This document shows positions 4,187 to 64,000 of a stretch of 64,000 bases of DNA, one piece after another. The stretch's first letter is position 1; each line of letters begins with the position of its first letter. Both the position numbers and the translations under genes were made by a program. Below the pieces are notes generated by a model that was not told the origin of the DNA, searched no databases, and saw only the letters and a list, made by a program, of their open reading frames with translations. This DNA is from SAR202 cluster bacterium. Its GTDB lineage: Bacteria > Chloroflexota > Dehalococcoidia > Lucifugimonadales > VGZY01. The stretch covers positions 33,803 to 97,802 of the forward strand of contig VGZY01000001.1 of assembly GCA_016872355.1 (NCBI GenBank), read 5' to 3'.

Positions 4187-4669
4187 TCAGGCGCTGATTC
4201 GCACCAGGGTGTTTGTCCGCGCATCGTAATCCACCACAACCCGCGACCCTAGCTTTACCGCCAGAACGCCGTGTCCCGTTGCCATTCCGCCGATCATAAC
4301 CGTCGAGGTGGACGTGGCCCTGAGGACGATTTCGGCACCGTCTTCGGCCACCACCGTGACCGTGCCGGAGACGGTATCTACGCCCTTGAGCGTCCCCGCA
4401 AGCGTGGCGTTGGAAACAGTATCCGCGACCCCTCGAGCGGGCCCCTCCTGGCGGGTGTCGATGGCAAGCAGCGCCCGCGATTCTGTGTCGTACTCCACCA
4501 TTGCAGGGCCGCCGATCTGCGCCGCCAGCGCCGTGGTGCCGCCCAGAACGCCCAGTGCAAGGATCTTCGAGGCCGGAGTGACCTTCAGCTCCAGCTTGGT
4601 GCCATTGTCAGCAACAATGACCACCTTGCCGGCTATGGCGTTCACGCTACGCAAGCCGCCGGTGGCCAC
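4187..4669 (-). CDS. hypothetical beta-rich protein with two internal ~65-aa repeats (DUF5666-like); N-terminus probably lost to a frameshift
   Basis: Two repeats: GKVVIVADNGTKLELKVT...VEYD and GTVTVVAEDGAEIVLRAT...VDYD. Adding one G to the run at 4681-4686 joins it in frame to MARGAVVSAAGVLAVTLTSTAGG, a signal-peptide-like segment with ATG at 4745. Confidence 0.5.
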   Translation of the reverse strand: MATGGLRSVNAIAGKVVIVADNGTKLELKVTPASKILALGVLGGTTALAAQIGGPAMVEYDTESRALLAIDTRQEGPARGVADTVSNATLAGTLKGVDTVSGTVTVVAEDGAEIVLRATSTSTVMIGGMATGHGVLAVKLGSRVVVDYDARTNTLVRISA

Positions 4670-4825
4670 CGCCTTCGGCCCCCCGCCGTCGAAGTCAACG
4701 TGACCGCCAGTACCCCCGCTGCTGAAACCACTGCCCCGCGAGCCATTGCGCCGAAAACGGCATTCCCCTTACAGATTCCCCCCCTCTGCGTTTTCCAGCC
4801 CAGCGCCAGCGTGCGAAAGCCCCCT

Positions 4826-5038
4826 CTATACGAGTATACCGCGCCAGTGCAAATTGGACTCCGGACGGGCATACTCCCACGAGCAGACGGCGCTTGTGCA
4901 CCGGAGCGTTCTCACCCTTGTTTCACTATCCATTCCCTTCGGATAGGACACTACCAGGTATATCCGGCTGTTGCACTCGGGGCAGAGATTGCCACTCGCC
5001 GCGCCGACATTACCGGTTGAGTATTCAAGTTTGCGCAT
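4826..5038 (-). CDS. small zinc-ribbon protein (70 aa)
   Basis: GAGGAGG RBS before the ATG at 5038. MRKLEYSTGNVGAASGNLCPECNSRIYLV...LRCTSAVCSWEY has a CxxC...CxxxC arrangement. Confidence 0.5.
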   Translation of the reverse strand: MRKLEYSTGNVGAASGNLCPECNSRIYLVVSYPKGMDSETRVRTLRCTSAVCSWEYARPESNLHWRGILV

Positions 5039-5258
5039 CTTACGCCTCCTCATCGGGTAACCCACTCACCGAGACACTGCAGCCGTTCCCGGACACCGAT
5101 TAGCGCTAATGCCAGTGTCTGAACATAAAAACGCGGGCCGAATGCTATTGTCAGGAATACTCTGACCCCCGTGAGCCCCTGTTCGCTGCGATTGGGCGCT
5201 CCGGCTACCCGATGCTGAACAATGCCGCTGCCGCAGGCTGAGCGGCAGGAGGACCGGC

Positions 5259-6169
5259 TTGCGTTATTACAGGCTGATGAGCACAGATGGCGGACACCGG
5301 CTTGCGGTAGAAGTACAGGACGGCACGCTTGCCGATCTGACGTCCATTGACGACGACCTCACCGGCGTAAATGACCTGGCCCTTACGGCGTCCCTCTCCG
5401 GCGCGTCGATTGACGACGTGGCCCGGAACATCCTTTCGAAGGGCTACGAAGTCGAATACGATCTGGAGGACGTGGTCACAGACTCGCGAAACGGCGCGGG
5501 GGGACGTGTGGCTGGACAGGCCGCTCGACCCGCCCGAGGTATGGGCGGCCGGCGTAACCTACAAGACGAGCGAGATGGAAGCGGCGGCGCGAGAGCCAGA
5601 CGCCGGACATCTACTCGCGGGTCTACACGGCAAAGCGGCCGGAGCTCTTTTTCAAGGCCACACCGGACAGGTGCGTAGGGCCTTTTGAGGCCGTCGGCAT
5701 CCGCGAGGACTCGAAATGGAACGTTCCGGAGCCGGAGCTGGCGTTCGTGCTGTACAATGGGCTGATCATCGGGTATACGATCGGTAACGACATGAGCAGC
5801 CGCACCATAGAGGGCGAGAACCCGCTCTACCTGCCGCAGGCGAAGATGTACTCCCGGTGTTGCGCGATTGGCCCTGCGTTCGTCACACCTGAAACGGTAG
5901 GCAACCCGCGCAACCTGTCCGTGGAATACTCAATCTTGCGCACGGCTGAAGAGATCTTCAGGGGCCGAACGTCCACATCCCTGATGGCCCGCACGTGCGA
6001 GGAGCTGGCGGACTGGCTATTCGCCAGCAATGATGTGCCGAATATGACTGCCGTGCTGACAGGCACGGCCAAAGTTCCGCCACCCGATATCACGCTCAAG
6101 GAAGACGACGTGGTGGTGATGACGATCGAGAACATAGGCACGCTGGAGAACTACGTCACGGTGGTTTAA
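5259..6169 (+). pseudogene. fumarylacetoacetate hydrolase (FAH) family protein, at least 2 frameshifts
   Basis: Three consecutive ORFs in three frames read as one FAH-fold protein: MRYYRLMSTDGGHRLAVEV..., then [26 protein letters not shown], then [66 protein letters not shown]...[16 protein letters not shown]. Frame changes sit at the G6 run 5498-5503 and near 5600-5607. Confidence 0.75.
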
Positions 6170-6187
6170 GTGGTACAGGAGCCGCCA

Positions 6188-7330
6188 ATGGACTTCGAAG
6201 TCGATGTTATTCGCACGTTCGTAGAGCCCGTGAAGCTCAGGGACGGCACGCTCTTGGGGCTGGACTGGAAGACCCTTCACGGGATGGTCTCCACCGACAG
6301 CGGCAGGACGTGGCGGGACTCCGGCCCCCTGCGCGACGCATCCGGACGCGTGCTGGAGGGCTCCGGCAAGTCCAACGGCTACGTCGTCCACATCCTGCGA
6401 CTCAAGACAGGGGAGATCGCAGTGAAGTACGATGTCGGCCACTCGCGTTACGATCTGGGCGGGTCGCCTCGCAGCACGTCGTACTTCACGAGGTCGGCGG
6501 ACGAAGGGCAGACCTGGTCCGCGCCGGTGCAGATCACGCCGACCGGCACGCCATCGCACACGTCATGGGTAGTGGAGATGGCGGACGGGCGGCTCGTCCT
6601 TCCAAACGAGTACGCGTACTCGCAACCGGGTGAAGATAAAAGGCCCAAGTTCGCCATATGCACCTCGTTCAATTCCGTCGACGGCGGGCGCACGTGGCAG
6701 GAGTCGCGCGACGCAATATGGCTGCAGAACGACGACGGCACGGTGCTGGACTATTGCGAGATTCCCACGGCCACGGAGACGCCCTCCGGCGGGATGCTGA
6801 TGCTTGCGCGCACACGGTACCAGCGCATGGGGGAGAGCCACAGCGCGGACGGCGGTCACGCCTGGAGTCCGATGCGTCTGAACGGCCTCGTATCAAGCTG
6901 CGCGGAGATATTCCTCGATCGCGTTCCCGGCAGCAGCGACATCTATTGCATCTGGAACCAGGCGACTGCCGAAGAGGTGGCGAAAGGCTACTACCGCGCC
7001 CGCCTCACGTCTGCGATCTCCCGCAACGGCGGCGTGACCTGGGAGAGCTTCCGGACGGTCGCAGCTTCGCCGGGAATGGAGGAGGTTGCCCGCATCCAGC
7101 CCGCCGGCACTCCCGTCTACACGCCCGTCCCCGGCGCGGTCCCCACTGAGCAGGAAATGGTCGCCCCTGAGTTTCACATGAACCGCGCCCCCCGCGCAAA
7201 GGTCATCGACGGCACGCTCTACGTCGCCTACACGCACCGCCGTTACAGATACGTAAACGGCAAGCAGACGAAGCTGCACGATGCGGTGAAACTCAGGGCA
7301 GTGCCGGTGGAGTGGCTGTGGGGGAAATAG
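6188..7330 (+). CDS. BNR/Asp-box repeat protein (sialidase-like beta-propeller)
   Basis: Five SxDxGxTW Asp-boxes: STDSGRTW, SADEGQTW, SVDGGRTW, SADGGHAW, SRNGGVTW. AGGAG RBS before the ATG at 6188. Confidence 0.75.
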   Translation: MDFEVDVIRTFVEPVKLRDGTLLGLDWKTLHGMVSTDSGRTWRDSGPLRDASGRVLEGSGKSNGYVVHILRLKTGEIAVKYDVGHSRYDLGGSPRSTSYFTRSADEGQTWSAPVQITPTGTPSHTSWVVEMADGRLVLPNEYAYSQPGEDKRPKFAICTSFNSVDGGRTWQESRDAIWLQNDDGTVLDYCEIPTATETPSGGMLMLARTRYQRMGESHSADGGHAWSPMRLNGLVSSCAEIFLDRVPGSSDIYCIWNQATAEEVAKGYYRARLTSAISRNGGVTWESFRTVAASPGMEEVARIQPAGTPVYTPVPGAVPTEQEMVAPEFHMNRAPRAKVIDGTLYVAYTHRRYRYVNGKQTKLHDAVKLRAVPVEWLWGK

Positions 7331-7414: not shown

Positions 7415-9285
7415 TCACACGTACCACCCAGACTGTATGCGGTACATCTCCGCGTAGCGCCCGCCACGCTCCATTAGCTCCGGATGAGAGCCGTCCTCCA
7501 CGATCTTGCCGCCGTCCAGAAACACGATGCGGTCCGCTAGCCGTGCCGAGCCGAGGCGGTGGGAGATGAGCAGGACGGAGCGGCCCCGGGCGATATCGCG
7601 GAAGTGGCGGTATACCTCCACCTCCATCTTGGCGTCCAGGGCTGCGGTGGGCTCATCGAGCACGAGAACTGACGCATCTCGAATATAGGCCCGAGCAATC
7701 GCCACCTTCTGCCATTGGCCAGATGAGAGGTCCTGCCCCTTGTCGTCATAGGTCTTGCCCAGCATCGTCTCGTATTTGGCAGGAAGGGCTGATATTACCT
7801 CGTCCGCTCCGCTCTTTGACGCAGCAACGGCGATTGCGTCGGTGTCCTCGATACGGCGTAGCTCGCCGAAGCCGATGTTCTCTCGCGCGGAGGCGGCGTA
7901 TTTCACGTAGTCCTGAAATACCGGCGCTACCCGCCTCCGCCACTCAGACGGCACTATCAAGGCCAGGTCCTCGCCATCCACCGTGATGCGGCCCGATGTC
8001 GGCTTGTAGAGTCCGAGCAGCAGCTTCGCGAGTGTCGACTTCCCCGCGCCGTTCTCGCCGACGAGCGCGATGCTCTTGCCGGGCTCCAGCACCAGGTCGA
8101 TGCGGTCCAGCACGGGCTTCGTGGCACCGGGGTATATAAAGGTCACCTGCTCGAACCGTACCGCCGGGACATCCGCGGCCAATGGCAGCTTATCGTGTGC
8201 GCCATTTTCCCGATGCCGTTAGTGGCCGTAGCGGCTGCGGGGAAGGGCGTCCACTCCTCCTCGGCCTTGAGTTAGTCCAGGACGTCCTTCATGTATGAAA
8301 TCGAGCCTGTAACAGACCGGTACCCGCCAAGGGCCATGGATGCCGAGCTCATGAACTGCTGGGCCGCCGTAAGGAAAGCAGCGAATAGTCCGAGCGTGAG
8401 ACGGCCCGTCACGATAAGGACTACTGACCAGGTGATCACCAGCGCATACGTAAAATGCTCGAAGAAGGTCCTGGCCACCGCACCGCGAACCCGCTCCCTG
8501 GCAAGAGACAGCCGGTCGTTGCGCAGCTCCGCGACGAGCTTCTTTCGCCTGCCGAGCAGGAAGTCACCAAGGCCAAACAAGCGCACCTCAGCGGCCGCGG
8601 GTCTATCCGCCATCAGCTTGCCCAGGTAGTCGATATATCGAAGTGTCGGGCTGTGCTTCGACTTCAGCACCCTGATCCTTTCAAAGATGCGCTCGCCGAT
8701 TACGTGCGACGGGGTGATGCCGATCAGCAAAATGACTGGGAACCATATGTTCACGGAGCCCAGATAGATAAGAAGCCCTATGGCGGTGATTGCGTCCGAA
8801 GGTATTCGAAGCATCCACTGAATCGGCACCCACAGCCGGTCCACACCGAACTGGGCGTGGTGAAGCAGGTCGTAGTATTCGGCCTGCTCGAATGCCTCCA
8901 GCGGCAACCGGCTCGCCTTTATCATCAGGCGCTCGTTCACGCCGGCCTGGAAGATCTCCATAATGTCCGGAATCAGCCAGCGGTGGACGAATATGCCGGA
9001 CAATGCCTGCACAAGGTTGGCCGCCAGAAACGCTACGAGCCATATCGTAGCAGTGGTCAGATTCGAATCGCCCTTGAGAATGCCGACGGCGCCGTCGATG
9101 AGGCCACGAAGGAATACGGTCATTAGAATGGGCGCAAGCCCTGTGATCAGGATCATGAACGCCGCGATCAGCATTTCGCGACGGCCGATCTCCCACATGA
9201 GCTTCATGTAGCGCCAGAAGTATATGGCCTGGTCCCTGGATCTCAGGCGTTGCCTATCGCGTGACCATTGCGACTGCCTAATCAT
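7415..9285 (-). pseudogene. ABC exporter, fused permease/ATPase (MsbA/MdlB type), disrupted by an in-frame TAA plus a frameshift
   Basis: The TMD ORF 8272-9285 and NBD ORF 7415-8182 equal one half-transporter when compared with the intact 616-aa paralogue next door. TAA at 8272-8274 is followed by still-alignable LKAEEEW. The frame then changes near the T4 run 8206-8209 before LPLAADVPAVRFEQVTFIYPG. Walker A GENGAGKST, signature LSSGQWQ, Walker B VLVLDEP. Confidence 0.8.
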
Positions 9286-9336: not shown

Positions 9337-11187
9337 TCACCGGTACCACTCGGCCTGGAGCTTGTACAGCTCCGCGTATGGACCCCCTCTCGCTACAAGC
9401 TCGTCGTGCGACCCTTCCTGAACAATGCGCCCCGTTTCCATGAACACGATCCTATCGGCCAGGCGCGCGGAGCCCAGTCGGTGCGAGATGATCAAGACGG
9501 TCTTGCCCTTTGAAAGGTCAAGGAACTGGCGGTACACCTCCAAATCCGCGAGCGCGTCCAGAGCGGACGTGGGTTCGTCTAGAACGAGAATCTCCGCATT
9601 CCTCAGATACACGCGCGCGATTGCCAGCTTCTGCCACTGCCCTCTGGAAAGCTCCATTCCACCCTCAAACTCTTTACCCAATGGCGTTTCAAAGCCCTTC
9701 GGCAGCTTCCTGATATCCTGCAGTGAGCCGCTCATCGCCGCCGCGGCTTCGACGGCCGCCCTGTTGTTCATCCTTTCCGTCCGCCCTAACCCGATGTTCT
9801 CCTCAACCGTAAAGGCGAACTTCACAAACTCCTGGAATACGACTCCCGTCCGGTCCCGCCATGACTTCTGATCGATCTCTCTCAGGTCTACACCGCCCAC
9901 CGTTATCGCCCCTTCGGTGGGCGTGTACAGACCGAGCAGCAGCTTCGTCAGTGTCGTCTTCCCCGCGCCGTTTTCCCCCACGAGCGCGACACGCTCGCCG
10001 GGGCGGATTCGGAAGTCCACGCGATCCAGGGCGGTCTTCTTCCCGCCGGTGTGCTTGTAGGTGACCGATTTGAACTCAATTCCTTGTTTCAGGGTCGACG
10101 GCGCTTCCACCGCTGTCGCCTTCTCATCCCCCGCAAGTTTGAGGAACCTGGAGGCATGGTCCATAAGGCCGAGAAATTCTCCAACTCCAAGGAGGCCGCC
10201 GCCGAAGCCGTTGACGTACGACAGGTACATCTGGGTAACAGTGATCATCGCCACGACCGTGCCCGCGGATATGGCGCCGCTCGAGGCCTGGTACAGCAGC
10301 AGGGCTATCGTGCCGCCGAGTATGGCAAGGTTCAGGGCTATTGGCGGCACCGCCTTGGGGATCAGCGACCGGCGCACCAAAGACACTTCGCGCATTCGAG
10401 AATCGTTAAGCGTCTTCCAGGAGTCCCTGACATGCGCGCCAAGGCCGAAAAGGCGCACCTCGGCCGCGGCCTCCCGTTCGGATACCAGGCCGCGCCAGTA
10501 CTCCAACCTTCGTTTCGCTTTTGCCTGTTTGCCCCACACCTCGTTATTCGCCTTGATTTCCCTGACGCTGCGCTGGGCCATTGCCGCACCGCCGACAAGC
10601 ATGAGGAATGGAATACTCCAGTGAACGCTGGCGGCGACGATCATCAAGCCCATGCCTCCGACCACGGTAGTGAGGAATGCCTGGTGTTTTGGCAGATCTA
10701 TGCTGATCACCCTCTCCTGCATTGCCCACTTCGCGCGGTTGAAGGACTCGAAGAAATCGGGGCTTTCGAAGCGGTCGAGGCTCATTCCGAAGGCCTTGCT
10801 GTACATCAGCGCCTCGTACCGGGCCGTCACTCGCTCGGAGAGCTGCGCCGTAAGATAGTTCTGGATGGTGTCGCTTAGTAGCAGGGAGGTCAGGACTTTC
10901 ACGCCGACGAAGAGAGCCAGCCAGGGGAGGAAAGGCCGGAGTGCTTCTATCAGCGGGAGGCCCGCGCGCGAAGCGCTAGCCTGCAAAGCGTCAATCAGCC
11001 CTACTGTCGCCTTGACGAGAACGACGGGCGCAATGCCGCCCAGGACGACGGCCACGGCCGCAAAGAGTGAGTACCATGGCCATGGGATGACCAGAGACTC
11101 CCAAACGAACCTGGCCAATTCCAGAGACGCTGAAATGCGCCCTCGGACGGTCAAAGACGGCTTTGCTGATGCAGTCGCAGCAACCAT
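9337..11187 (-). CDS. ABC exporter, fused permease/ATPase (MsbA/MdlB type)
   Basis: 616 aa with an N-terminal 6-TM-like domain. Walker A GENGAGKTT, signature LSRGQWQ, Walker B ILVLDEPTSALD, H-loop ISHRL. Confidence 0.9.
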   Translation of the reverse strand: MVAATASAKPSLTVRGRISASLELARFVWESLVIPWPWYSLFAAVAVVLGGIAPVVLVKATVGLIDALQASASRAGLPLIEALRPFLPWLALFVGVKVLTSLLLSDTIQNYLTAQLSERVTARYEALMYSKAFGMSLDRFESPDFFESFNRAKWAMQERVISIDLPKHQAFLTTVVGGMGLMIVAASVHWSIPFLMLVGGAAMAQRSVREIKANNEVWGKQAKAKRRLEYWRGLVSEREAAAEVRLFGLGAHVRDSWKTLNDSRMREVSLVRRSLIPKAVPPIALNLAILGGTIALLLYQASSGAISAGTVVAMITVTQMYLSYVNGFGGGLLGVGEFLGLMDHASRFLKLAGDEKATAVEAPSTLKQGIEFKSVTYKHTGGKKTALDRVDFRIRPGERVALVGENGAGKTTLTKLLLGLYTPTEGAITVGGVDLREIDQKSWRDRTGVVFQEFVKFAFTVEENIGLGRTERMNNRAAVEAAAAMSGSLQDIRKLPKGFETPLGKEFEGGMELSRGQWQKLAIARVYLRNAEILVLDEPTSALDALADLEVYRQFLDLSKGKTVLIISHRLGSARLADRIVFMETGRIVQEGSHDELVARGGPYAELYKLQAEWYR

Positions 11188-11379
11188 GCATTCACTCCCC
11201 TGTTCAGCCAGTGAGGATTGACACGCACGCCATTATGGACGCTTTCTAATGGGACGTCAACTACTTATGTTCGGCGGATAGTGAAGCACCGCTAGTAGTA
11301 ACACGTCTCAGGAAACAGAACAAGAATTGAAACAAACGGGGATTTATGGTGTAATTCGTTTAGTGTAATTACAAACAAA

Positions 11380-11408
11380 GGGCCAATCGGAGAGCTTCCG
11401 GTTGGCCC
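11380..11408. terminator. hairpin terminator after the HTH/F1-beta-like gene
   Basis: gggccaa...ttggccc stem with an inner cgga/tccg pairing and T-rich runs on both sides, in a locally AT-rich spacer. Confidence 0.6.
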
Positions 11409-11431
11409 TTTTGTGTTCAATTCGTGTCCCG

Positions 11432-12499
11432 TTATTTCAAATCCCGCGGCAGGCTGCCGAGGAACATCAACTTTTCCACAGGCACGCCGTCCACAGCGCC
11501 GTCCAGTATCCGCCGCACGCCGTCCAGCGCCTCGGACAGGGGCACCCACGCGCCGGGGCGCTTCGTGTGGGCCTCCGCGGAGAAGAACGGCTGAGTCATG
11601 AACGCTTCCAGACGCTCTCCCGCACGATAGACGGAACGGTCGGGCTCCGGAATGGCGTCTGCGCTCCTCATGCTTACCAGCAGGCGTAGCTCCTGGTAAC
11701 GCCTCAGCACAAGCCTGGCGTTCGCGACAGTCGCGAAATGGGATGCCTCGATCTGCGCGCCGTCCAGCAGGGTAGACGTCGACGGTATTGGGTCAATAGC
11801 GGGGTACAGGACGCGCGTCGCGAGGTGCTGCTCGAAGCGCCAGACCGTCTCCAGGGGGCCGAAGGGCGCGCCTTCGATATCGGGCGTCTGCCCGGTCAGG
11901 TCGTAGAGGGCGAAAGTGACGGGCCGCGCGCCCGCCTCCCTTGCCCTTTCCCGGATTGTCGTCAGCTCGCCCGACAGCACCTTCTCGCGGTCGGTCACGA
12001 CGAAAATGTCGTGCTCAACGCCGGATGACCCCAGCAGCGCGGCGGCTTCGTCGAGCGTGGAGACGGTCATGCCGGCATCGGCGGCCAGAGCGTCGGTGAA
12101 ACGACGCTCTTCCTCAGGAAGCCAGAGCACTGTCTCAAAGCCGCGGTGGCTCTTGAGAGTGCGGACCAGTTCCTGGAGCAGGACGACCTGTCCCAGGCCG
12201 GGCCTGGAGATCGCCCCGGCGATGCCGCCGCGGACGAGCGGCGCAAACAGGTCGATTACCTTGATGCCGGTCTCAACCATCCCGGCGGCCCCGGTCTTCA
12301 CAAGGAGCTCATCGAGGGTGCACCCGGCGAGAGAGGCCAGTGCCGCGAGGGTGCGGACCTCTGCCCTCCCAATCGGTATCTTGCCGGTGCAAAGGTCGGA
12401 GACGGTTGCAGGGCGCAGGCCAACGGAGCGGGCGGCGGACGTGAGATTCGGGACACGGCGACGCAACAGTGGGACGTTTAGCAAAAGGTCCTCAGGCAT
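11432..12499 (-). CDS. XRE-type HTH domain fused to a degenerate F1-ATPase beta-subunit-like body (putative regulator)
   Basis: N-terminus LTSAARSVGLRPATVSDLCTGKIPIGRAEVRTLAALASLAGCTLDELL is a Cro/XRE HTH. The rest tracks AtpD: ETGIKVIDLFAPLVRGG, YPAIDPIPSTSTLLD (beta: YPAVDPLDSTS), RYQELRLLV (RYKELQDII), TQPFFSAEAHTKRPGAWVPLSEALDGVRRILDG (SQPFFVAEVFTGSPGKYV...). The P-loop position reads SRPGLGQV instead of GGAGVGKT. GGAAGGAGG RBS favours the ATG at 12499 over the GTG at 12508. Confidence 0.8.
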   Translation of the reverse strand: MPEDLLLNVPLLRRRVPNLTSAARSVGLRPATVSDLCTGKIPIGRAEVRTLAALASLAGCTLDELLVKTGAAGMVETGIKVIDLFAPLVRGGIAGAISRPGLGQVVLLQELVRTLKSHRGFETVLWLPEEERRFTDALAADAGMTVSTLDEAAALLGSSGVEHDIFVVTDREKVLSGELTTIRERAREAGARPVTFALYDLTGQTPDIEGAPFGPLETVWRFEQHLATRVLYPAIDPIPSTSTLLDGAQIEASHFATVANARLVLRRYQELRLLVSMRSADAIPEPDRSVYRAGERLEAFMTQPFFSAEAHTKRPGAWVPLSEALDGVRRILDGAVDGVPVEKLMFLGSLPRDLK

Positions 12500-12518
12500 A
12501 GCGGTCACCTCCTTCCGC

Positions 12519-12544
12519 TATACCGTAACATATCTTACGTTATA
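12519..12544. promoter_or_regulatory. imperfect inverted repeat, candidate operator of the HTH/F1-beta-like gene
   Basis: TATACCGTAAC-ATAT-CTTACGTTATA. The half-sites match 9 of 11 as reverse complements, 20-45 nt upstream of the start codon. Confidence 0.4.
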
Positions 12545-12569
12545 CAGTAAATAGCCTTGCGCTCGCGCG

Positions 12570-13115
12570 TTACGCCTTCAGCTTCGCCAGGTACTCCTTG
12601 CGGAACTTCGCCACCTTGGGCGCGATAATGTATGCGCAGTATCCCTGGTCCGGGTTGCGTCGGAAGTATTGCTGGTGGTACTCCTCGGCGGGGTAGAAGA
12701 CCTCGCTCTCCCGCACGTCGGTTATGATGGGGCGGTTCCAGACCTTGCGGCGGGTGAAGTCGTAGATCACGTCGTCGGCGGTGGCCTTCTGCTCCGGGCT
12801 ATGGTAGAAGACGGCCGACCGGTACTGCGGACCGATGTCGTTCCCCTGCCGGTCCTTCGTCGTGGGGTCGTGTATTGTGAAGAAGACCTCGAGGATCTCC
12901 TTGAACGAGACTACGGCGGGGTCGAACGTCACCTGAACAACCTCCACGTGGCCGGTCTTGCCGGTGCACACCGCCTTGTAGCTCGGGTTCTCGACGTGGC
13001 CGCCGGTGTAGCCGGACACCACCTTCTCCACTCCCTTGAGCTGCTCGTACACCGCCTCCAGGCACCAGAAACAGCCGCCGCCAAGGGTAGCCTGCTCTCT
13101 CGTTTGCGTGGTCAT
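12570..13115 (-). CDS. msrA: peptide-methionine (S)-S-oxide reductase
   Basis: GGGCFWCLEAVYEQLKGVEKVVSGYTGG active-site signature. AAGGAGGG RBS before the ATG at 13115. Confidence 0.9.
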   Translation of the reverse strand: MTTQTREQATLGGGCFWCLEAVYEQLKGVEKVVSGYTGGHVENPSYKAVCTGKTGHVEVVQVTFDPAVVSFKEILEVFFTIHDPTTKDRQGNDIGPQYRSAVFYHSPEQKATADDVIYDFTRRKVWNRPIITDVRESEVFYPAEEYHQQYFRRNPDQGYCAYIIAPKVAKFRKEYLAKLKA

Positions 13116-13213
13116 GGCCCTTCGCCCTCCTTGAAGTCTCAAACTATCGCGATTATTTGATACCATGCGGGGTAGTTCAGGTTCACATTAACACTAATGC
13201 GGAGTGTGCACCA

Positions 13214-14827
13214 ATGGGCGGAATCGTCGTCTGCGTTCACCAAAGGCCTGCCGAGGAGGGAGCGAAGGTGCTGGAGGCCGGCGGCGACGCCTTCGACGCC
13301 GCAGTGACGACCGCGTTCTGCCAGATGGCGATCCTCCCCTTCTCCTGCGGCGTGGGCGGCGGCATGACCGCCATTCTCTACTCCGCTCTCAACCGCGAGC
13401 GAGTGGCGATCGACGGCAACATGCGCGCGGGGTCCAGGGTCACGCCGGTCATGTGGGCGAAGGACTACCTGGGCGAGTCCGACTACATAGGCGAGAGCCT
13501 GTTTGCGGACTACCGGAGCACGATGGGTTACACCTCCATCTGCACGCCCGGCTCCGTCGCCGCGCTGGCGGACATGCACCGCCGCTTCGGCACAATGCCG
13601 TGGCCGGAGCTGCTGCAGCCGGCAGCGCGCCTCGCCCGCGACGGGTACGCGCTCACGGACGACTTCCTTCGCTAGTACCTGCCCTCAGTGGGGCCGTACG
13701 AGCCCGGAGGGATAGAGCGCATCAAGGCGACGGCGGAGGCGGCGCGCCTTTTCCTCCGGCCGGACGGCGGGCCTCTGCCGGAGGGGCACATCCTCAAAAA
13801 CCCTCACCACGCGGAAACATTCGAACGGCTGGCGCGATACGGCCCTCAGGACTTCTACACCGGCAGCCTGGCGCGGGACATTGCAGACGACCTTGCGAAG
13901 AACGGCGCGTTTGTGACGCTGGACGACCTCCGCGAGTACCGCACGACGACGTACGCGCCGAGTAACACGTACTACGGCCGGTACGCCGTGTACTCCAACA
14001 ACCCTCCCGGCGCAGGGGCGCTGCTGCAGGAGGCGCTGAACGTGCTGGACGGCCTCGATATGGGCTCTCTGGAGCACAACGGCGCTGAGTACCTGGCGCG
14101 GCTTGCATCGACGATGCAGCTTGTGAACCAGGACCGGCGCGACTACCTGGGAGACCCGGAGGCCATTGGCGAGGGGCCGGGGAATGTGCTACGTTCCGGG
14201 GAGCGAGCAGCAGTCCTTCGCAAAGCCGTGCTCGCGGGCGTGGTGGTCGGAATCGCACCGCGGAAGGAGTCACCGGACACCACGCACATGACCGTCGTGG
14301 ACGGGCACGGCAACATAGCGTCGATCACGCACACGCTTGGCGCGCACTCTGGGGTCGTAACTCCGGGGCTGGGGTTTGTGCATAACGACGGGATGAACCG
14401 CTTCGACGCGCGCCCCGGGCGGCCCAGCTCGCTCGCGCCGCGCAAGGCCCGGCTGCACCTGATGATGCCGACGATAATATTCGACGGCGACTCGCCGTAC
14501 ATGGTGCTGGGCGCGCCTGGCGGGAACGGCATCCTGAGCGCACTCTCGCAGACCTTCCTGAATATCGTGGAGTTCGACATGACCGCCGGCGAGGCGGTCC
14601 TTTCGCCTCGCATCCACGCGGAGGGCTCGACGATCTGGTGCGAGTCGCGCTCCCGCTCGGACACGCTCGACGAACTCCGTGCCCGCGGCCACACCGTCGT
14701 GAAGGACTACATGTCCCTCGGCCGCCGCTTCGCCAAGGCGCACGTCGTCGTCATGCACCCGGACGGCCAGCTGGACGTAGGCTCAGACCCGCGCGGCTCG
14801 ATGGGCGTCGTCAAGGCTCGGGGGTGA
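13214..14827 (+). pseudogene. ggt: gamma-glutamyltransferase family protein with an in-frame TAG
   Basis: ORFs 13157-13675 and 13688-14827 are in the same frame and read through as ...DDFLR*YLPSVGPYEPGG. The GGT nucleophile context is SPDTTHMTVVDGHGN. TAG at 13673-13675. No signal peptide. Confidence 0.8.
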
Positions 14828-63749: not shown

Positions 63750-64000
63750 CGGGTCGTGCTAAGCGGGGAGTTAGCGGTGTCCTGTACTCGCAATCCGCTC
63801 TAGCGAGGCTGAATTCCTCTATGAGGCCGCGTACCGGGGGCCACTGCCAATGGGTTCCGGTGTTGAGAGTTGGGTCCTGCGCAGCGGAAACCCGTGAACC
63901 CCGCCAGGTCCGGAAGGAAGCAACGGTAAGCGGACCTTTCCGGGGGCCGTGGGTCAGCCTGGCTCGAGTCGGGTCCACTGGTACGTCTTCGGGCGCGAAC
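63750..64000 (+). ncRNA. ffs: signal recognition particle RNA, long (Bacillus-type, Alu-domain-containing) form, 3' end beyond the window
   Basis: gggtcgtgctaagcggggag.tagcggtg.cctgta...gcaatccgctctagc matches the 5' Alu domain of B. subtilis scRNA as I recall it. ccaggtccggaaggaagca is the universal domain IV motif. TATAAT at 63739-63744 is just upstream. Confidence 0.85.

Follow-up and report, generated by a model that had tools for sequence, protein, structure and literature searches.

A putative XRE-type regulator with a body derived from the F1 ATP synthase beta subunit in a SAR202 cluster bacterium

The pairing of a DNA-binding domain with a disabled enzyme is a familiar design among one-component regulators. 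BzdR of Azoarcus sp. CIB is a repressor of this kind, in which an XRE-type helix-turn-helix (HTH) domain is joined to a P-loop domain resembling shikimate kinase; the latter is catalytically inactive and binds the effector benzoyl-CoA, and the authors of that work argued that it could take on its regulatory task only once catalysis had been lost (PMC3602430). Here we describe a gene for a 355-residue protein, located on the minus strand (11432..12499) of a 64,000-nucleotide stretch of contig VGZY01000001.1 from a SAR202 cluster bacterium (hereafter the window), whose product combines a Cro/XRE-type HTH domain with a body like that of the F1 ATP synthase beta subunit. F1 beta would be a new source for such a domain: we know of no report in which the rotary ATP synthase has contributed its catalytic subunit to a regulator as the disabled enzyme. 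The initial annotation of this locus, made from the nucleotide sequence, named no characterised precedent, and a full-text literature search, which had incomplete coverage and gives absence of evidence only, likewise yielded no account of F1 beta fused to an HTH domain or a sigma factor. The main texts of a review of extracytoplasmic function (ECF) sigma factors and of an ECF reclassification study contain neither "ATP synthase" nor "ankyrin".

We regard it as probable that the protein is an autorepressing one-component regulator in which an F1-beta-derived pseudo-ATPase serves as input or oligomerisation domain. The initial annotation had proposed an ATPase-dead F1-beta fold recruited into a transcription factor, and recruitment as the non-catalytic domain of an HTH factor is supported by all of the computational tests available to us.

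Domain architecture and the former active site

Residues 72 to 246 of the protein (11762..12286, minus strand), extending from the ETGIKVIDL motif to YPAIDPIPSTS, form a reduced RecA-like nucleotide-binding domain of the F1-beta type. They are followed by a beta-type C-terminal helical domain (residues 247 to 355; 11435..11761, minus strand), which is matched by Pfam ATP-synt_VA_C over residues 250-334 and by positions 313-452 of NCBIfam atpD. Pfam recognised the nucleotide-binding domain over the first 39 positions of its alpha/beta profile only (residues 78-117). The atpD profile (TIGR01039) matched the body with an E value of 1.2e-34 and a score of 119.9 bits, which is below the curated cutoff of 462.85. 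Profiles of other RecA-like families scored far lower, with E values of 2.4e-7 for FliI, 4.6e-7 for V-type A, 0.015 for Rho and 0.044 for alpha, and SctN was also far lower; the NCBIfam families of Mycoplasma MMOB1670 and MSC_0618 gave 113 and 103 bits. In a phmmer search of the Protein Data Bank (PDB), the top 58 matches were all F1 beta (best E value 5e-35), with alignments to F1 beta falling in two stretches, residues 74-133 and 175-351 of the query. Outside the HTH domain no kinase-family match was found in Pfam or NCBIfam, and the PDB matches listed were F1 beta or V-type ATPase subunits.

A structure model was produced from an alignment of 144 sequences, true AtpD sequences included, and reached a pLDDT of 92.4 and a pTM of 0.82. 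The top 50 Foldseek matches to this model were all F1 or G1 beta (best E value 9.6e-21, TMq 0.63-0.69, root-mean-square deviation ~4 Å). NCBIfam, phmmer against the PDB and Foldseek alike place the body with F1 beta, and the fusion with an XRE-type HTH domain, recognised by Pfam, is borne out; the body is confirmed to be of the F1-beta type, a far better match than FliI, Rho, V-type or alpha. No closer family of the FliI or Rho kind with an intact site, the outcome against which the initial annotation had asked for a check, was found; the body is specifically beta-like and its catalytic residues are lost.

The initial annotation held that the protein follows the beta subunit nearly motif by motif. 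The fold and the motifs are there, and every peptide string that it quoted is present in the protein, but the body is trimmed: with three deletions, of ~6, 11 and 24 residues, the nucleotide-binding domain falls about 48 residues short of its length in AtpD, and the region of the catalytic Glu and Arg is not conserved. The distance between E76 in ETGIK and Y232 in YPAxD is 156 residues, compared with 204 in E. coli beta. The C-terminal helical domain retains RYQELR and TQPFFSAEAHT, and its DELSEED loop has degenerated to DAIPEPD. The beta-barrel crown domain (PF02874) gave no match and residues 1-68 are the HTH domain instead, in agreement with the proposal that the HTH replaces the N-terminal beta-barrel.

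The Cro/XRE-type HTH domain (residues 1-68; 12296..12499, minus strand) was delimited by Pfam matches, the structure model and conservation. HTH_26 matched residues 14-67 marginally (E value 2e-4, 22.0 bits against a cutoff of 22), HTH_3 and HTH_31 matched the N-terminal domain more weakly, and the relative P0124 reached an HTH profile score of 23.9 bits. Conservation in the family is highest in this domain, where the mean frequency of the top residue is 0.87, and it is nearly invariant across phyla (LNVPLLRRRVPNLTxAARxxGLRPATVSxLCTGKIPVGRAEVRTL). Five helices are predicted at residues 9-15, 19-25, 30-38, 48-58 and 62-65, with a mean pLDDT of 90-96 in 10-residue blocks over residues 11-60 and of 80 over residues 61-70. 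Searches of the PDB with the single sequence and with a family profile returned weak matches only, with HigA at an E value of 0.27 in the family-profile search. As far as can be read from sequence, the profile match, the five-helix domain and the palindromic operator described below are consistent with an XRE-type regulator.

To compare active sites, the family was aligned to E. coli AtpD and residues were counted over 116 members (alignment A4). The P-loop is remodelled to SRPGLGQVV (residues 98-106; 12182..12208, minus strand), with SRPGLGQV standing where E. coli beta has GGAGVGKT and with G150 replaced by R99, K155 by Q104 and T156 by V105. The loss of the Walker A Lys and Thr, noticed in the window protein at the outset, was confirmed by this alignment and is family-wide: the K155 position is Gln in 111 of the 116 members and Lys in three, which may be evolutionary intermediates, and the position of the Mg ligand T156 is Leu, Met or Val. 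R99 is found in 112 members and G103 in all 116. The position of the catalytic E181 is variable in the family, and that of R182 is mostly Glu. In the Walker-B-like strand DIFVVTDR (residues 164-171; 11987..12010, minus strand), assigned from the alignment and conservation, D170 corresponds to D242 and is Asp in 101/116 and Glu in 14/116, R171 corresponds to N243 and is Arg in 116/116, and the 24-residue deletion that follows R171 removes the R246 region.

Catalysis by E. coli F1 requires each of beta K155, T156, E181, R182 and R246. Because these residues are lost, the protein is predicted to be incapable of F1-type ATPase activity. The former phosphate site is among the best-conserved parts of the body, however, and has therefore been remodelled, not abandoned. 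Adenine-pocket residues are retained as well, with an aromatic residue at the position of Y331 and the motif QPF.VAE..T.

The open reading frame extends over 11432..12508 on the minus strand if the GTG at 12508 is taken as the start, with the stop codon at 11434..11432. The true start is likely the ATG at 12499, as an AGGAGG Shine-Dalgarno (SD) sequence (12508..12513, minus strand) lies 8 nt ahead of it and the N-terminus read from this codon, MPEDLLLNVPLL, aligns with the N-termini of all homologues. An identical protein (P0001) is on record as a hypothetical protein of the Chloroflexota, under "MAG: SAR202 cluster bacterium FJ319_00230", from a metagenome-assembled genome (MAG).

The operator array and its promoter

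Just upstream of the gene lies a 26-nt imperfect inverted repeat, TATACCGTAAC-ATAT-CTTACGTTATA (12519-12544), which the initial annotation had read as an operator. It is present as described, and its core, GTAA-GATATG-TTAC (O1; 12525..12538, minus strand), belongs to a pattern that recurs in the family. In the 120 nt that precede the start there are 62 exact GTAA-N6-TTAC sites, spread over 54 of 80 homologous loci, which amounts to 6.5 sites per kb versus 0.017 per kb elsewhere (17 sites in the remaining 972 kb), a ~370-fold difference in density. When one mismatch was allowed, 71 of 81 upstream regions had a site, compared with 9.1 (maximum 15) after shuffling. O1 is the single exact site in the window, which is not significant alone, as at least one such site occurred in 17 of 100 shuffles. 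Since the palindrome recurs upstream of homologues far beyond chance, we read it from these alignments as a conserved operator at the gene's own promoter.

A sigma-70-type promoter was inferred at 12522..12551 (minus strand), with a -35 element TTTACT (12551..12546), an 18-nt spacer and a -10 element TACGGT (12527..12522), and was placed by register with the Bacillota consensus TTGCnT-17-TACTAT. The upstream consensus in Bacillota reads ATTGCnT...aGTAA-N6-TTACTATatAaAGTAAggagg, and the palindrome there occupies the 17-nt spacer between the -35-like TTGCnT and the -10 TACTAT, overlapping the latter. The window array has the same register: GCAA-N6-TTAC, N8, GTAA-N6-TTAC, N8, GGAA and then the SD. 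The right half-site of O1 overlaps the inferred -10, and a second operator, O2 (GCAA-GGCTAT-TTAC; 12547..12560, minus strand), lies 22 bp upstream of O1, overlaps the inferred -35 and takes the position of the conserved TTGC element of the Bacillota loci. A fifth half-site, GGAA (12513..12516, minus strand), is found 8 nt past O1 and abuts the SD; the equivalent half-site is GTAA at +22 in 38 of 48 loci and abuts the SD in Bacillota. The five half-sites alternate in orientation, are 10 and 12 bp apart on one helix face, and span the inferred -35 and -10. Extra full sites occur 45 bp upstream in 15 cases and 22 bp upstream in four. Judged by its position, the operator points to autorepression by cooperative binding.

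A search for a regulon in the 64-kb window with exact and relaxed operator patterns returned the gene's own site and chance-level matches only. A 41-kb part of a Paenibacillus megaplasmid contained only two sites, that of the gene itself and one within a coding sequence. The 17 exact sites elsewhere in the 972 kb of homologous loci are about what chance would give, by a rough estimate of ~28 for this AT-rich DNA, and five are accounted for by the family gene's own promoter-operator unit in a relocated position (in L010, L014 and L023, with two in L082).

In Paenibacillus residui (L010, 4666-7047) and Paenibacillus sp. J2TS4 (L023, ~4640-7041), the whole promoter-operator unit precedes a gene inserted 5' of the regulator gene and encoding a BAAT-like acyl-CoA thioesterase, the two thioesterases sharing 68% identity. 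In a further Paenibacillus locus (L014, ~4965-7047), the unit stands ahead of an acetamidase/formamidase-like gene. From these relocated units it follows that the promoter-operator serves whatever operon ends in the regulator gene. The inserted genes may be regulated cargo and may give a hint at the signal.

The region 12495-12524 also contains a 10-nt inverted repeat, GGTATAGCGG / CCGCTATGCC in the mRNA strand, that is 90% complementary and would place the SD in a loop and the AUG in a stem. It may be a by-product of the operator, because its 5' arm would be untranscribed if transcription starts ~7 nt past the inferred -10.

Distribution, gene neighbourhood and relatives of the body

A search of 5.8 billion proteins recovered more than 120 full-length relatives of 350-370 residues with 50-62% identity, from Chloroflexota MAGs, many Paenibacillus, Alicyclobacillus, Caldalkalibacillus, Symbiobacteriaceae and one MAG labelled Pseudomonadota. 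This degree of identity across phyla indicates purifying selection. The initial annotation had suggested that the phyletic distribution of the fusion be profiled, and in a genome scan with one genome per species, 408 stretches were found to encode a relative, in Chloroflexota and Bacillota with further Bacillaceae genera included. Members occur in cultured isolates with complete genomes, such as Alicyclobacillus dauci and Paenibacillus humicola, and the junction between HTH domain and body is conserved among homologues. Phage records contained no family members, only AtpD-level matches at ~26% identity. Database records call family proteins hypothetical, "helix-turn-helix domain-containing" or "F-type ATPase subunit beta"; the last of these is wrong and amounts to a systematic misannotation. 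One member, WP_152404100.1 ("hypothetical protein"; L089, NZ_CP045296.1, 540575-541633), comes from Paenibacillus cellulositrophicus, where its gene has the same operator and sits on a secondary replicon of 897 kb.

In the window, the gene is flanked by msrA upstream and by ATP-binding cassette (ABC) genes downstream, and the atp operon genes atpG and atpC are not among its neighbours. All-against-all clustering of the open reading frames in the 80 loci revealed no conserved neighbour gene, the best cluster being present in 13 of 80 when the family gene itself and its antisense shadow frames are excluded; because no neighbour is conserved across these loci, we consider it a stand-alone gene. 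Three annotated contexts (L001, L002 and L004) are mutually unrelated, and in L001 and L002 the family gene is followed by a small open reading frame that has no Pfam match and is not conserved. A HigA-type XRE antitoxin was considered and rejected, as no small neighbouring gene is conserved in the 80 loci and PADLOC returned no matches. For a link to defence, the same zero result from PADLOC stands beside weak HTH matches only in PHROGs.

The gene has its own intrinsic terminator, as the initial annotation had stated: a GC-rich hairpin followed by UUUGUUUG (11372..11408, minus strand), identified by folding against shuffled sequences. Its stem covers 11408..11380 and its U-tract 11379..11372, and with a dG of -24.8 kcal/mol (z -4.25) it was matched by none of 200 shuffles. 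The region 11372-11414 has an A-tract 5' and a U-tract 3' of the hairpin, the layout of a bidirectional terminator, yet both flanking genes are on the same strand. On the other side, the msrA stop codon (12572..12570) is 70 nt from the ATG of the regulator gene (region 12500-12572). No terminator was detected between msrA and the regulator gene, and read-through from msrA is therefore possible.

Beyond the terminator, the ABC exporter genes lie on the same strand and have a promoter-like site of their own, TTGACG-17-CATAAT; no operator-like site was found ahead of them between 11187 and 11432. Both exporters named in the initial annotation are present, but the second is split in two (7415-9285, minus strand): a membrane-domain frame without Pfam match (8272-9285) and an ATPase frame matching ABC_tran (7415-8182) are separated by ~90 nt and a stop codon. 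A pair of half-transporters, a pseudogene and an assembly error are all possible explanations. A gamma-glutamyltranspeptidase gene (13157-14827, plus strand) also appears as two frames, 13157-13675 and 13688-14827, the second covering positions 132-510 only of the Pfam profile, possibly through a frameshift in the MAG. A bacterial large signal recognition particle (SRP) RNA (RF01854, 159 bits) is found at 63754-64000 on the plus strand, cut by the window end.

An exhaustive search with residues 70-355 yielded 2337 proteins at E values up to 1e-3, comprising true beta subunits and many non-canonical proteins. Among 96 representatives of the latter, ECF sigma region 4 was found in 28, region 2 in 25 and ankyrin repeats in 22. 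An XRE HTH was present in a few, and inspection of N-termini identified a MerR HTH in one (P0179, with GKT intact) and an AraC HTH in one (P0168, with the loop GVGRT). The architectures include sigma-ankyrin-beta-like, sigma-beta-like and ankyrin-beta-like proteins and sigma with a beta-barrel and a strongly reduced beta. The sigma-linked relatives are all metagenomic.

Sigma, ankyrin and beta-like parts are fused in the single proteins P0165, P0221, P0226, P0146, P0198, P0263 and P0133. Three stand-alone short beta-like proteins (P0134, P0272 and P0273), which lack the beta-barrel and have a Walker A of GVGK[LM] with the Thr lost, are in all three cases encoded directly downstream of an ECF sigma-ankyrin gene, the gene pairs lying in the metagenomic loci L086 (5877-8086), L087 (6082-8086) and L088 (2616-5077). 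The same parts being fused in some proteins and adjacent in these loci, the relationship is one of gene fusion ("Rosetta stone"), and the arrangement looks like an undescribed type of ECF sigma regulation. A further group (P0141, P0161, P0199, P0210 and P0242) joins an ECF sigma to a beta-type beta-barrel and a much reduced nucleotide-binding domain, in which the distance from ETGIK to YPAxD is ~108-118 residues versus 205 in AtpD; the barrel has a Pfam match in P0199 and P0242 and in the fragments P0185 and P0223.

The whole body of the window protein aligns in one stretch with P0165, P0193, P0221, P0226 and others. Among 65 non-canonical relatives the P-loop Lys is kept in 30, and the Mg-ligand Thr in only three of those 30. 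The common denominator of these relatives would seem to be a non-hydrolysing beta body attached to a transcription protein. Their occurrence on transcription proteins supports a regulatory role of the module in general.

Interpretation and comparison with known systems

In the model that we favour, the HTH domain would bind GTAA-N6-TTAC palindromes, probably as a dimer. Half-sites spaced about one helical turn apart would cover the inferred -35, the -10 and the start region of the gene's own promoter, and binding there should repress its transcription. The body, which descends from the F1 ATP synthase beta subunit and is not expected to work as an ATPase, could act as an input domain that binds an anionic ligand without hydrolysis, most plausibly one containing an adenine nucleotide. 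Alternatively, or in addition, it could bring dimers into contact with one another so that they fill the operator array cooperatively; in either role it would tune DNA binding. That the body senses an adenine-nucleotide-type ligand is a part of this model that we hold only tentatively. With similar reserve, we suggest that dead, trimmed F1-beta copies may form a widespread and hitherto unrecognised class of input modules coupling transcription to an adenine-nucleotide-type signal, of which the window gene would be the XRE-fused, self-repressing representative. Its putative members would be fused to XRE, MerR or AraC HTH domains or to ECF sigma factors, or be encoded beside sigma-ankyrin genes, and candidate signals for it are the adenylate or energy status of the cell and metabolites that carry a nucleotide, for example a CoA thioester.

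Several observations weigh against this model or parts of it. The AtpD sequences in the 144-sequence alignment bias the structure model towards the beta fold, and the family-only alignment of 29 sequences gave a poor model (pLDDT 65, pTM 0.41) with low-TM Foldseek scores. The -10 element TACGGT is weak and was not called by a consensus promoter scan. Neither the 64-kb window nor ~1 Mb of homologous loci yielded a target beyond the gene's own promoter; since a regulator that controls itself alone would be biologically odd, its regulon presumably lies outside the DNA covered. With regard to the ligand, adenine-pocket residues are kept in relatives of any P-loop state and in true AtpD, so that their conservation is weak evidence for nucleotide binding and may be structural. 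The loss of the P-loop Lys may abolish nucleotide binding altogether, and the varied P-loop states of the relatives make a single common nucleotide ligand less plausible.

The alternative that takes up these last points is that the body is a protein-interaction or oligomerisation scaffold with no small-molecule ligand, which builds a higher-order repressor on the half-site array or, in a variant, docks a conserved partner such as an ankyrin-type protein or an ATP synthase subunit. We consider this possible and give it the same weight as the sensing of an adenine-nucleotide-type ligand, though less than the favoured model as a whole. An array of five to seven half-sites ~11 bp apart calls for cooperative multimer binding, the beta-like body of relatives is paired with ankyrin repeats, which are protein-binding modules, and with sigma factor, and the residue at the Lys position varies widely in the larger group (K, Q, R, L, A, V and others), which speaks against a shared phosphate ligand. 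The F1 beta subunit itself functions through interfaces with alpha, gamma and epsilon. A scaffold does not account for the strong constraint on the P-loop in the XRE family (R99, G103, Q104 and R171), which is unexpected for a functionless site; the protein also lacks the crown domain, which in F1 keeps the hexamer together, and the family genes have no adjacent ankyrin partner. Another alternative is that the protein governs the two downstream ABC exporter genes, much as a drug-efflux repressor controls its pump, and the adjacency and common strand of these genes in the window would fit this. It is nevertheless improbable, as these genes are not neighbours of the homologues in the three inspected contexts, no other gene cluster exceeds 13 of 80 loci, a strong terminator and a separate promoter-like site lie between the units, and the interval 11187-11432 is free of operator-like sites. 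The exporters, which had been pointed to as possible partners, can thus be set aside in that role.

Still less probable is an active NTPase or DNA-dependent motor with non-canonical catalytic residues. The protein does retain a RecA-like core, a glycine-rich loop and the Asp of Walker B (D170), and three of 116 members keep the Lys, but Lys has become Gln in 111 of 116, the Mg-ligand Thr has become hydrophobic, the residue at the position of the catalytic Glu varies and the R246 region has been lost by deletion; there is also no alpha subunit to supply an arginine finger and no crown domain to form a ring. Least credible of all, with hardly any probability left to it, is an artefact in which a frameshift or assembly error fused an HTH gene with a decaying atpD paralogue. 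Two other window genes do look split, the ABC exporter and the gamma-glutamyltranspeptidase gene. The same continuous architecture is found, however, in complete isolate genomes and in the 408 stretches, and the family alignment refutes this explanation: a near-invariant HTH domain together with a conserved junction excludes a frameshift fusion. The initial annotation had named a sequencing-error fusion as a point to check, and with the architecture conserved in hundreds of genomes the fusion is no artefact.

If the favoured model of an autorepressing regulator with an F1-beta-derived domain is correct, it would give a clean case of a motor subunit turned sensor, and it would correct a systematic misannotation. 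The family is large and strongly conserved, with members in Chloroflexota from soil and sea as well as in many Paenibacillus and Bacillaceae, and the sigma-linked relatives raise its interest beyond that of a single odd fusion and point to a general regulatory module. The ligand of the remodelled cleft could reveal a new link of transcription to energy or nucleotide status.

AtpD is clearly the evolutionary source of residues 72-355. The two proteins share ETGIKVIDL, RGG, the glycine-rich loop and the Walker B strand, as well as YPAxDPxxSTS, RYxEL and QPFxVAE, the beta-type fold and the C-terminal helical domain. The window protein differs in lacking the barrel, GKT, the catalytic Glu and Arg and R246, in its degenerate DELSEED loop and in the added N-terminal HTH domain. 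The F1-like beta proteins of Mycoplasma (the MMOB1670 and MSC_0618 families; G1-ATPase) are likewise divergent beta paralogues outside ATP synthesis, and they figure among the Foldseek matches to the window protein. They keep intact P-loops, however, work catalytically within alpha/beta rings and have their genes in F1-like clusters, whereas the window protein is a single dead chain with an HTH domain.

The closest relatives of the body outside the family are found in the sigma-linked group, which also lacks the beta-barrel and the Mg-ligand Thr. Like ECF sigma factors with C-terminal extensions (e.g., ECF41 and ECF42), the sigma-ankyrin-beta-like proteins carry a regulatory appendage on a transcription protein, as the window protein is proposed to do. 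In contrast to them, the window protein has an XRE HTH domain and no sigma regions 2/4, ankyrin repeats or adjacent sigma gene, and its body is shorter, with 156 residues between the anchor motifs versus ~175-183, and has Gln where they often have Lys.

With lambda CI, the window protein shares an N-terminal HTH domain followed by a C-terminal domain, and tandem palindromes ~22-24 bp apart over its own promoter. CI binds cooperatively through dimer-dimer contacts and is autoregulated, a mechanism that we infer for the window protein from these likenesses. The C-terminal domain of the latter is unrelated to the CI/LexA peptidase fold, and the gene has no phage context. In logic, the closest characterised analogue is BzdR, which likewise unites an XRE HTH and an enzyme-derived, inactive domain of P-loop fold in one chain. 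The ancestor of that domain has the nucleoside monophosphate (NMP) kinase fold, compared with the RecA-like F1 beta here, and BzdR keeps its Walker A and has a known ligand and operon. Having no shikimate kinase homology, the window protein stands outside the BzdR subfamily proper and would represent the same design drawn from a different enzyme.

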